This document shows, in pieces, positions 32,649 through 33,799 of a stretch of 64,000 bases of DNA (position 1 is its first letter; every line of letters begins with the position of its first letter). A program made the position numbers and the translations under genes. The stretch comes from a virus. The stretch lies in the IMG/VR virus record IMGVR_UViG_3300017963_000203, positions 66,895 through 130,894 of that record, one strand, 5' to 3'. The notes beneath the pieces were generated by a model, which was not told the origin of the DNA, did not search any database, and saw only the letters and a list, made by a program, of their open reading frames with translations.

Positions 32649-32735
32649 TGGCGGAGGCCGGAGGGCTCGAACCTCACACCTTTCGGCGCGCGCCGGGTAG
32701 CAACCGGGCCTCAGCCCATGCCGAGTTCAGCCTCC
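32649..32735 (-). tRNA. tRNA-Ser(GCT)
   Basis: GGAGGCT/GGCCTCC acceptor, loop TTGCTAC, long variable arm, GGTTCGAGCC T-arm, G73, encoded CCA. Confidence 0.85.
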
Positions 32736-32851: not shown

Positions 32852-32942
32852 TGGCGGCGGGCGGAGGAGTCGAACCCCTGCCGCGAAGCGACCACCGGTT
32901 TTCAAGACCGGCCCCCGGGCCCAGCGCCGAGGCTCACCCGCC
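32852..32942 (-). tRNA. tRNA-Ser(TGA)
   Basis: GGCGGGT/GCCCGCC acceptor, loop CTTGAAA, variable arm, GGTTCGACTCC, G73, CCA. Confidence 0.85.
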
Positions 32943-32978
32943 ATACGCGACCGAGGGGTCAGCTTCCGGACGCCACCC

Positions 32979-33052
32979 CACCAGCAGTCGGATTTGAACC
33001 GACGACCTCAGGCTCACGTGACCTGCGCTCTACCAGACTGAGCTACACTGTT
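32979..33052 (-). tRNA. degenerate tRNA-like gene (apparent CGT/Thr anticodon)
   Basis: Canonical D-arm TAGCTCAGTCTGGTAGAGC and T-arm GTCGGTTCAAATCCGAC, but loop CACGTGA (A33), mismatched acceptor and no CCA. Confidence 0.5.
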
Positions 33053-33062
33053 CGGTCGCTGA

Positions 33063-33133
33063 GGTGACCGATCGGAGTTGAACCGACGTCTCGAGGGCCA
33101 CAACCTCGCGCTCTTCCGTTGAGCTACGGCCAC
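33063..33133 (-). tRNA. tRNA-His(GTG), no encoded G-1
   Basis: GTGGCCG/CGGTCAC acceptor, loop TTGTGGC, C73; -1 base is T; 3' trailer TCA. Confidence 0.9.
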
Positions 33134-33134
33134 A

Positions 33135-33218
33135 TGGTGCTGGAGGTGGGAGTCGAACCCACATACCCGAAGGCGCCGGGTCTGAGCCGGCTGTGTCTGC
33201 CAGTTGCACCACTCCAGC
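33135..33218 (-). tRNA. tRNA-Leu(CAG)
   Basis: GCTGGAG/CTCCAGC, loop CTCAGAC, variable arm, A73, CCA. Confidence 0.9.
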
Positions 33219-33226
33219 ATTCTTGA

Positions 33227-33308
33227 TGGCCGAGGCGGGAGTCGAACCCGCAATCCCGAAGGCACACGCCCCTCAGACGTGCGTGTATGCCAGTTCCACC
33301 ACTCGGCC
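33227..33308 (-). tRNA. tRNA-Leu(GAG)
   Basis: GGCCGAG/CTCGGCC, loop CTGAGGG, variable arm, A73, trailer TCA. Confidence 0.9.
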
Positions 33309-33311
33309 AGA

Positions 33312-33384
33312 TACGGGCGGGGGGATTCGAACCCCCATCCCCCGGGTTTGAACCGGTCGCGTCTGCCAGTTGCGCCACGCCCGC
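33312..33384 (-). tRNA. tRNA-Leu(CAA) with short variable loop
   Basis: GCGGGCG/CGCCCGT, Leu-type D-arm, loop TTCAAAC, 4-nt variable loop, A73, trailer TCT. Confidence 0.8.
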
Positions 33385-33387
33385 TGA

Positions 33388-33461
33388 TCGGGGTAGCCGG
33401 ATTCGAACCGGCGATCTCCTGCTCCCAAGGCAGGCGCCCTACCAGGCTGGGCTATACCCCG
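33388..33461 (-). tRNA. tRNA-Pro(TGG)
   Basis: CGGGGTA/TACCCCG, loop CTTGGGA, A73, trailer TCA. Confidence 0.92.
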
Positions 33462-33466
33462 ATGAA

Positions 33467-33552
33467 TGGGGTGTGGAGGAATCGAACCTCCTGGCCAGCC
33501 ACCCTGCATTAACGGCCAACGGATTTACAGTCCGCCGCAGGGAACACACCCC
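33467..33552 (-). ncRNA. tRNA-Tyr(GTA)-like RNA lacking a D-arm
   Basis: GGGGTGT/ACACCCC acceptor, 10-nt linker, GCGGA-CTGTAAA-TCCGT, 27-nt variable arm, GGAGG-TTCGATT-CCTCC. Confidence 0.75.
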
Positions 33553-33771
33553 GAAGGATCCCCAAGGGATCTTGCCGCGCGGTCAAGGGATCAGGGCAAA
33601 GAGACCGGCGGCTATAGACTCGGGTAGAGGTGTGGCGAGGGTAGGGAATGAGATGAACTGAGTAAGAGGCTCAAGATGTGAAAGCCTGCGTTCATCTATC
33701 TGCCCACACGGGTAAGAAAGGCGTCTGGAAAACCAGGCGGGATTAGAACCCGCTACGCTTCCGATGTCATC

Positions 33772-33799
33772 ATTATCTCCGTCACCCACAACGAGTCAA
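33772..33799 (-). promoter_or_regulatory. sigma70-like promoter for the tRNA array
   Basis: TTGACT-N16-GATAAT on minus strand, pointing into the array. Confidence 0.5.

Follow-up and report, generated by a model that had tools for sequence, protein, structure and literature searches.

The window analysed here is the final 64 kb (64,000 nucleotides) of the 130,894-bp IMG/VR viral record IMGVR_UViG_3300017963_000203, for which CheckV estimates a completeness of 68%. The region is phage-like, with neighbouring genes that match PHROG DNA topoisomerase, virion structural and tail-fibre families and a Laminin_G_3 domain. Its minus strand carries a compact array of transfer RNA (tRNA) genes from 33562 to 32852, which in the order given by ARAGORN are Tyr, Pro, Leu(CAA), Leu(GAG), Leu(CAG), His, Thr and Ser(UGA). 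The subject of this study is the gene at the head of the array, a complete 86-nt tRNA-Tyr(GUA) gene without an encoded CCA (33467..33552), in which the D-arm hairpin is absent and a pseudoknot between the linker and the variable-arm loop is predicted in its place. The remainder of the array, Pro to Ser(UGA), follows directly downstream on the same strand (32852..33462), as found by ARAGORN and Rfam.

In the following, RNA position p corresponds to window coordinate 33553-p, and all parts of the gene lie on the minus strand. The 5' strand of the acceptor stem (positions 1-8, 33545..33552) pairs with positions 78-85, which together with the discriminator A at position 86 occupy 33467..33475. A two-nucleotide linker, UU (positions 9-10, 33543..33544), leads into the 5' strand of a helix termed X, CCCUGCG (positions 11-17, 33536..33542), which runs directly into the anticodon arm (positions 18-34, 33519..33535) with the stem GCGGA/UCCGU, the loop CUGUAAA and the anticodon GUA at 33528..33526. 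The variable arm starts with the 5' strand of a second helix, V (UGGCCG, positions 35-40, 33513..33518), and continues through the loop L2, UUAA (positions 41-44, 33509..33512), to the 3' strand of X, UGCAGGG (positions 45-51, 33502..33508), which thus lies within the variable-arm loop. It is followed by UGG and a C (positions 52-55, 33498..33501), the candidate equivalent of G18-G19 of the D-loop, and by the 3' strand of V (UGGCCA, positions 56-61, 33492..33497). G62 and the T arm GAGG-UUCGAUU-CCUC (positions 63-77) fill 33476..33491.

In this copy, the acceptor stem has seven of seven pairs and can be extended to eight, the anticodon stem has 5 bp and the variable-arm stem UGGCCG/UGGCCA has 6 bp. 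Because G62 can also pair with C78, the T arm may equally be drawn as GGAGG-UUCGAUU-CCUCC, so that a register of seven acceptor and five T-stem pairs (7/5) is as possible as one of eight and four (8/4). Only 9-10 nt separate the acceptor and anticodon stems and they form no D hairpin. Instead, CCCUGC (positions 11-16) is perfectly complementary to GCAGGG (positions 46-51) of the variable-arm loop, directly upstream of UGG, and the helix can be extended by a seventh pair, G17-U45. When the window copy alone was shuffled with its composition preserved, the 10-nt linker and the 15-nt loop were joined by six perfect Watson-Crick pairs in 1520 of 200000 cases (0.76%). The initial annotation of this locus had described the gap of about 10 nt in place of the D-arm, the complementarity of CCCTGC and GCAGGG, and the TGG that follows; all of these are present, and its transcription of 33552..33467 is identical to the minus-strand sequence.

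Relatives were sought in IMG/VR with a pattern consisting of a Tyr anticodon stem-loop, a spacer of 28-45 nt and a T loop; an ordinary class II variable arm would leave about 18 nt between the two. This narrow pattern matched 56 viral contigs, 55 of them with a full 3' end, and two loci with a truncated 3' end (L045) or 5' end (L017) were left out of the counts. The window copy and its relatives comprised 50 rows with the layout of the window copy (type 1) and five rows of a second type. The 37 distinct type-1 sequences were aligned by MAFFT, which is blind to structure, and a covariance model, R1, was built from this first alignment with an acceptor stem of 8 bp, helix X of 7 bp, an anticodon stem of 5 bp and a T stem of 4 bp. 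A wider scan allowing any anticodon stem returned at least 119 loci and added at least 18 type-1 members whose anticodon stems differ and whose X sequences are new. The distinct type-1 members among the matches listed make up a set of 61 sequences, 83-91 nt long, the alignment of which was fitted by R1 and hence leans toward the model. Type-2 sequences were excluded from the alignments (A1 and A2). R1 gives type-1 members at least 60 bits (98.3 bits for the window copy) and type-2 members 35-45 bits, and no ordinary tRNA in 504 kb of arrays exceeds 32.8 bits. A search for related loci with the neighbouring topoisomerase-like protein as query found none.

Helix X is supported by both alignments. 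Among the 37 sequences aligned by MAFFT, it is paired at 98.8%, no unpaired cell occurs in the six core pairs, and four of its seven pairs change on both sides. One pair occurs as C-G (27), U-A (4), A-U (3) and U-G (3), another as U-A (24), C-G (9), A-U (2) and G-C (2), and the sets of pair types include C-G/U-A, U-A/C-G/A-U/G-C and A-U/G-C/U-A/C-G. The covariation score of the whole structure was not reached by any of 500 shuffles of this alignment, and sliding the 3' partners by 1-3 columns lowered pairing from 86.5% or 96.0% to 32-57%. With the 61 sequences fitted to R1, changes on both sides are seen at all seven pairs of X, all five of the anticodon stem, which is 100% paired, and seven of the eight acceptor pairs; X is 97-99% paired across alignments. 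The linker before X is UU in 45, UC in 7, AU in 6 and CU in 3 of these sequences, L2 is rich in A and U with a length of mostly 5-7 nt (range 2-8), and the motif after X is UGG in 55, CGG in 3 and AGG in 1, with GG displaced by one column in the remaining 2, making the GG nearly invariant.

The same alignments define the acceptor branch. Position 8 pairs with the base otherwise drawn as the last of the T stem (GC 28, AU 5, UG 3, other 1 of 37), and in 29 of the 37 sequences the two bases of the canonical T-stem pair 49-65 do not pair. In the larger set, the eighth acceptor pair is GC in 41, AU in 7, UG in 6, UA in 5 and CG in 2, with none unpaired, and no variation is seen in the inner two T pairs. 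These counts give the family a layout with an acceptor stem of 8 bp, a linker of 2 nt and a T stem of at most 4 bp. The acceptor, anticodon and T arms drawn in the initial annotation are present, and its acceptor and T stems are to be redrawn as 8/4 for the family.

Helix V follows the anticodon stem without a gap and stops 0-3 nt short of the T stem, and since the 3' strand of X lies in the V loop, the two helices cross. Columnwise counting of V fails on both alignments (60% paired with MAFFT), as the distance to the T stem differs by 1-2 nt between sequences, and the helix was therefore searched in each sequence separately. At least four contiguous pairs were found in all 43 distinct sequences (4 bp in 26, 5 bp in 13 and 6 bp in 4). 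The search picks the best helix of each sequence. As most sequences share a UGCC core, the control with mismatched partners is weak, 54% reaching 4 bp, and the argument rests on the compensated variants: UGCC/GGCR, UGGC/GCCG, UGUC/GACG, UGCUU/AAGCA, UACCU/AGGUA, CGUCG/CGACG and GCGG/CCGC, beside UGGCCG/UGGCCA of the window. For the window copy, the scaffold alone is calculated at -23.9 kcal/mol, with V at -32.2 kcal/mol and with X at -34.1 kcal/mol, so that each helix is favourable individually. Judged from these sequence comparisons, the predicted fold is an H-type pseudoknot in which X is crossed by V. The compensatory changes in both helices bear out the suggestion of a tRNA-Tyr-like RNA that lacks a D hairpin and pairs its linker with the variable loop as a D-stem equivalent.

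The second type repeats this topology on a different scaffold. Its 13 distinct sequences, 90-95 nt long, have the same pseudoknot on a conventional 7/5 scaffold, with a UA linker, a 6-bp X (ACGGCA/UGUCGU, ACACCA/UGGUGU or ACGAAA/UUUCGU) followed by A-YUGG, and mostly CAA instead of CCA after the discriminator. The V helix of this type has compensated variants of its own, CUGC/GCAG, CCCC/GGGG and CCGC/GCGG. Type-2 copies are found at loci L013, L018, L030, L043, L055, L125, L135, L136, L140, L146, L159, L160, L196 and L213.

Well over 100 IMG/VR contigs carry a member of the family, as do, without annotation, six cultured phages: the Pseudomonas phages Rembedalsseter, SCYZ1 and Lyrsu01-03 and the Rhizobium phage RHph_N3_2. 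Blastn with the window copy as query found none of the named phages, and matches came only with other family members as queries; R1 scores four of the named-phage copies at 72.6-79.6 bits. The highest of these scores belongs to Rembedalsseter, a complete genome of 45,228 bp with 85 coding genes and no annotated tRNA, for which ARAGORN reports no tRNA and Rfam no family at gathering threshold. The RNA is the sole tRNA-like gene of this phage, beside the small terminase gene, which fits a specific need for tRNA-Tyr better than a general supply of codons. In Lyrsu02, an annotated tRNA-Pro follows the RNA, as in the window. Upstream of the Tyr gene, by about 10-35 nt, a motif ATAGCGGAGAGTGT..ACAAAT is kept in one group of viral contigs (L001, L008, L025, L029, L033, L035, L052-L054 and L056) and may be a promoter dedicated to this tRNA.

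Among genomes representing 185,579 bacterial and archaeal species, one genome per species, the narrow pattern found six records: four Planctomycetota metagenome-assembled genomes, a 608-bp contig of a Spiribacter metagenome-assembled genome and the isolate Tateyamaria omphalii. A lineage-wide cellular tRNA was considered and rejected, as R1 matched only two of 41 genomes around one of the Planctomycetota and one of 41 around T. omphalii, and three Planctomycetota carriers also have a canonical tRNA-Tyr. A role as the sole tRNA-Tyr of T. omphalii was likewise dismissed. The Rfam tRNA model finds 41 tRNAs for 19 amino acids in this genome, with Tyr missing, and the canonical tRNA-Tyr of its relatives is present there at 100% identity. 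A prophage context of the bacterial copies was rejected as well, since the ten neighbouring proteins scanned are ordinary chromosomal ones (YchF, TPR, ankyrin, BKACE and dehydrogenases). By these comparisons, the cellular copies are sporadic second tRNA-Tyr genes that lie among ordinary chromosomal genes.

The canonical class II tRNA-Tyr of T. omphalii (genome G003, C3:465689-465772), which has the anticodon loop CUGUAAC, is itself missed by the Rfam tRNA model at E-values up to 0.01, as is that of genome G044; ARAGORN detects this tRNA in G044-G047. A census based on the Rfam model alone would thus score these genomes as lacking tRNA-Tyr.

Bacterial tyrosyl-tRNA synthetase (TyrRS) recognizes its tRNA by the GUA anticodon, the G1-C72 pair, the discriminator A73 and the long variable arm. 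The first three of these are kept in the family. The window copy carries GUA in the loop CUGUAAA, G1-C72 is present in 60 and A73 in all of the 61 members, and CCA is encoded in 47, the window copy not being one of them. The variable helix of 4-6 bp is present, with its loop tied into helix X. GUA is also found in all members recovered without an anticodon constraint, namely the four named-phage copies scored with R1 and one bacterial copy, and none of 45 loci with other anticodons that match the same pattern has the architecture, their best R1 score being 32.8 bits against at least 60 for members.

The genomic setting agrees with a function in translation. Other tRNA genes lie within 1.5 kb of 54 of the 61 members. 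A second tRNA-Tyr was called by ARAGORN in one of the 61 loci taken whole, and in none of the 21 loci that have tRNAs for at least 12 amino acids. In six phage arrays ARAGORN finds tRNAs for exactly 19 amino acids, with Tyr the sole one missing. This constitutes an annotation blind spot, where phage tRNA sets that seem one amino acid short are probably complete. Taken together, the comparative sequence data indicate, with a probability of roughly 70%, that the RNA is a phage-encoded tyrosine tRNA that takes part in translation with a rewired core. The 130.9-kb record, with its completeness of about 68%, yielded no gene for RtcB, TyrRS or a CCA-adding enzyme; host enzymes would accordingly have to handle the RNA, and a connection to RNA repair, as raised in the initial annotation, finds no support.

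Standard tRNA finders offer a different account of the locus. ARAGORN reports a 96-nt tRNA-Tyr at 33467..33562, which gains a D-arm (CGGGG-UGUGUU-CCCUG, with five possible pairs) by starting 10 nt upstream and takes its acceptor strand from the sequence before the gene. Such an ordinary tRNA-Tyr is very improbable, given that its acceptor stem has only four of seven pairs whereas a start at 33552 yields seven to eight perfect ones, that both the Rfam tRNA model and R1 place the 5' end at 33552, that the upstream sequences of the members are unrelated, and that the ARAGORN fold recurs in none of the relatives; among the distinct members listed, ARAGORN overlaps this one and calls none of the other 60. 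Rfam itself stays below threshold: its tRNA family (RF00005) scores 33467-33552 at 26.7 bits against a gathering threshold of 29, leaving the gene off the gathering list, and the top family is tRNA-Sec (RF01852) with 36.5 bits against 47. The sub-threshold score, the lack of a D hairpin and the missing CCA of the window copy could also be read as signs of a decayed pseudogene with a coincidental complementarity. This is equally hard to credit. Compensatory change is seen in every helix across the 61 distinct sequences from many contigs, copies occur in six cultured phages of two host genera, and the complementarity of the window copy taken alone would arise by chance in 0.76% of shuffles. Decay is already contradicted by these comparisons, and the earlier argument that intact stems speak against it holds. 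What the window copy shares with canonical tRNAs is an acceptor stem, a 7-nt anticodon loop, a T loop of the UUCRANY type and a discriminator base; it departs from them in the D-arm hairpin, the partner of the linker lying 3' of the anticodon arm. A third possibility is a nested fold, in which X closes a long hairpin containing the anticodon loop and the V segments are single-stranded or otherwise paired. The minimum free energy (MFE) structure of the window copy (-39.6 kcal/mol, z = -2.4) is of this kind, as it contains the CCCUGC/GCAGGG helix together with an alternative GGC/GCC pairing, and X with the anticodon stem is calculated to be more stable than V without X. Yet V reaches at least four contiguous pairs in every sequence searched, many of them fully compensated, UACCU/AGGUA breaks the alternative GGC/GCC pairing, and type 2 compensates V independently, which makes a nested fold improbable.

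A further alternative concerns function and is best weighed together with phage defence. According to the accessible text of two studies, PtuA-PtuB-type nucleases of retron-Eco7 cut tRNA-Tyr in the variable arm, and deleting or swapping the longer variable loop of the phage tRNA-Tyr abolishes its protective effect (PMC12673091, PMC11555353). The available parts of a third report describe a Septu system that cuts the same region of tRNA-Tyr and phage T6 escaping by amplification of its tRNA-Tyr gene (PMC13096335). The RNA could then be a decoy or inhibitor that mimics tRNA-Tyr and blocks or soaks up a host nuclease outside translation. In line with this, overexpressed tRNA-Tyr neutralises PtuA-PtuB toxicity and the variable loop of the phage tRNA is needed to inhibit retron-Eco7, as excerpts of PMC12673091 state; in a 45-kb phage no other tRNA-like gene accompanies this RNA, and the T stem is irregular. 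On the other side, G1-C72, A73 and CCA are largely or entirely kept, the RNA occupies the sole empty slot of six arrays for 19 amino acids, and an intact GUA anticodon arm whose stem is compensated would be superfluous in a decoy. A pure decoy, one of the functions proposed in the initial annotation, is for these reasons unlikely, although decoy and translating roles are not exclusive and could coexist.

For the translating tRNA-Tyr, a tentative reason for keeping the rewired core is that it would bury the variable arm from PtuA-PtuB-type nucleases, the variable-arm loop of the family being at least 15 nt long and about half or more base-paired in X. The phage would thereby keep its supply of tRNA-Tyr while the host destroys its own. 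Some small phages in which this RNA is the sole tRNA would be in keeping with such a role, and the nuclease resistance suggested in the initial annotation is plausible as a hypothesis, to which the published work on PtuAB cleavage gives a concrete form. Because the variable arm of tRNA-Tyr is an established target of anti-phage nucleases, the family is a candidate for escape by structure, as opposed to escape by dosage or point mutation. The more demanding proposal, that a non-cloverleaf tRNA-Tyr translating with unmodified bacterial TyrRS, EF-Tu and ribosomes has evolved in two families that are proof against PtuA-PtuB nucleases and is used by phages and by a few bacteria that acquired the gene, is speculative and somewhat doubtful.

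Several observations weigh against a translating tRNA with this fold, or against its link to defence. The MFE structure of the window copy contains X and neither the canonical anticodon stem nor V. Of the four T pairs, the outermost fails to form in 28 of the 61 sequences and the next in 6, an irregular acceptor branch for which binding of EF-Tu cannot be assumed. Since the search patterns that recovered most members prescribed both the anticodon loop and the T loop, the conservation of these loops in those members carries no weight. A canonical tRNA-Tyr accompanies the RNA in all four bacterial genomes checked. A search of sequencing runs gave DNA runs only, with no RNA run among those listed, and the two runs that contain the full sequence may be the source samples. 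The three-dimensional fold and the contact of GG with the T loop are inferred only. Finally, nothing links the phages or hosts at hand to PtuAB-type systems, and the PtuAB targets described in the accessible parts of the published work are E. coli, T-even or T5-like tRNAs with ordinary cloverleaves.

If the RNA functions as a tRNA-Tyr, it would be matured by RNase P and 3' processing enzymes of the host, and the window copy would in addition need the host CCA-adding enzyme because it does not encode CCA. Host TyrRS would charge it with tyrosine by way of G1-C72, A73, GUA and the long variable arm, and the charged tRNA would then be used by the ribosome. In the proposed fold, X stacks on the anticodon stem in the place of the D stem; since its 5' strand continues unbroken into that of the anticodon stem, the two can form one arm of 12 bp. 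By analogy with canonical tRNA architecture, the GG 3' of X would reach the T loop as G18-G19 of the D-loop do, V would brace the top of the anticodon stem to the start of the T stem, and the whole molecule would probably keep a tRNA-like L shape.

Some further features of the window were observed around the Tyr gene. A 6-bp hairpin, GAUCCC-UUG-GGGAUC (33556-33571, minus strand), ends 4 nt upstream of its 5' end, may be a processing or termination element, and is partly used by ARAGORN in the 96-nt call. Farther upstream, at 33737-33799 on the minus strand and just past the stop of a 1332-aa open reading frame, lies a sigma-70-like promoter match, TTGACT-16-GATAAT, followed by a hairpin, GCGGG-UUCUAAU-CCCGC, and a U run, which resembles a tRNA T arm or a terminator.

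Other genes of the array are irregular as well. Downstream of it, at 32652-32735 (minus strand), an extra tRNA-like gene is missed by ARAGORN and by Rfam at gathering threshold and scores 23.3 bits with R1. Read by eye, its layout is that of the (8/4) allo-tRNA-Ser of Mukai et al. 2017: the acceptor stem counts 8 bp, the D stem 6 bp with a tetraloop and the T stem 4 bp, the anticodon loop reads GCU (Ser), the variable arm is long, the discriminator is G, and CCA is encoded. The tRNA-Ser(UGA) gene at 32852-32938 (minus strand) also reads as 8/4 by eye; the 7/5 drawing of ARAGORN has mismatches in both stems, and the gene is absent from the Rfam tRNA gathering list. The Leu(CAA) gene (33312-33384, minus strand), at 73 nt, has a leucine anticodon without a long variable arm. 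Similar leucine-anticodon tRNAs of 73-77 nt occur in four Planctomycetota records (L057, L058, L062 and L222), where such short genes form runs of two to four before or after the Tyr gene, and across the 61 loci 28 of the 40 'Leu' calls near Tyr genes are shorter than 78 nt. With altered Tyr, Ser and Leu genes, all three class II tRNA types are present in these arrays in altered form.

The RNA is a tRNA, but its core topology is undescribed in the searchable literature. A full-text search, which did not extend to supplements, returned no tRNA-Tyr, nor any other bacterial or phage tRNA, with a pseudoknot between the D-stem and the variable loop, and a 2020 review of non-canonical tRNAs contains neither the word 'phage' nor 'pseudoknot'. 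The initial annotation had allowed that similar RNAs may already be catalogued. In the consulted portion of a 2023 survey (PMC10690425), the IMG/VR candidate structured RNA DNAVirus_1423 'only sometimes' overlaps ARAGORN tRNA-Tyr calls; it could be the same RNA catalogued without its topology. A natural pseudoknotted tRNA that relies on its host would test how much of the cloverleaf is needed by RNase P, TyrRS, EF-Tu and the ribosome, and it might serve as a new scaffold for orthogonal tRNAs. A published effort sets out, in the part of the text available, to evolve E. coli that accepts a non-canonical tRNA fold (PMC11551756). Tractable systems are offered by SCYZ1 and Rembedalsseter, phages of the Pseudomonas fluorescens group.

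Compared with known systems, the RNA is closest to the (8/4) tRNAs and allo-tRNAs, which occur in bacteria and in phage tRNA clusters (Mukai et al. 2017, PMC5389517). Like these, type 1 has a 12-bp acceptor branch of 8 + 4 pairs, a long variable arm and a long D-stem equivalent, and it is found in phage tRNA clusters beside other irregular tRNAs, the window array having serine tRNAs that look 8/4 by eye. In allo-tRNAs, however, the D-arm is a real hairpin of a long stem and a tetraloop, whereas the pseudoknotted RNA has none and draws on the variable-arm loop for the second strand. Phage 8/4 tRNAs published so far have Ser (G73 or U73) or His identity, unlike the GUA and invariant A73 found here, and in the main text of PMC5389517 tyrosine appears only in a reference title. 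The tRNA-Sec family shares the long acceptor stem, long D-stem equivalent and long variable arm, and differs in its UCA anticodon in place of GUA, in having a D hairpin, and in the score below its gathering threshold.

With canonical bacterial class II tRNA-Tyr, the RNA has in common GUA within CUGUAAA, G1-C72, the discriminator A, a long variable arm and a standard T loop. It differs in lacking a D hairpin and D-loop, in the 8/4 branch of type 1 and in the half-paired variable-arm loop. The tRNA-Tyr of phages T5 and SP15 is likewise phage-encoded with an altered, longer variable arm, the feature behind escape from retron-Eco7 PtuA-PtuB cleavage; as far as the accessible text of these reports goes, it is an ordinary cloverleaf with a longer variable loop (PMC11555353, PMC12673091, PMC13096335). 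The absence of a D hairpin between the acceptor and anticodon stems is shared with D-arm-lacking mitochondrial tRNAs such as nematode mitochondrial tRNA-Ser, which in the available section of PMC7609411 are shrunken molecules that have simply lost the arm and are served by adapted mitochondrial partners. The pseudoknotted RNA, in contrast, is of full length and is predicted to rebuild the D-stem equivalent by a long-range helix while relying on ordinary bacterial enzymes.

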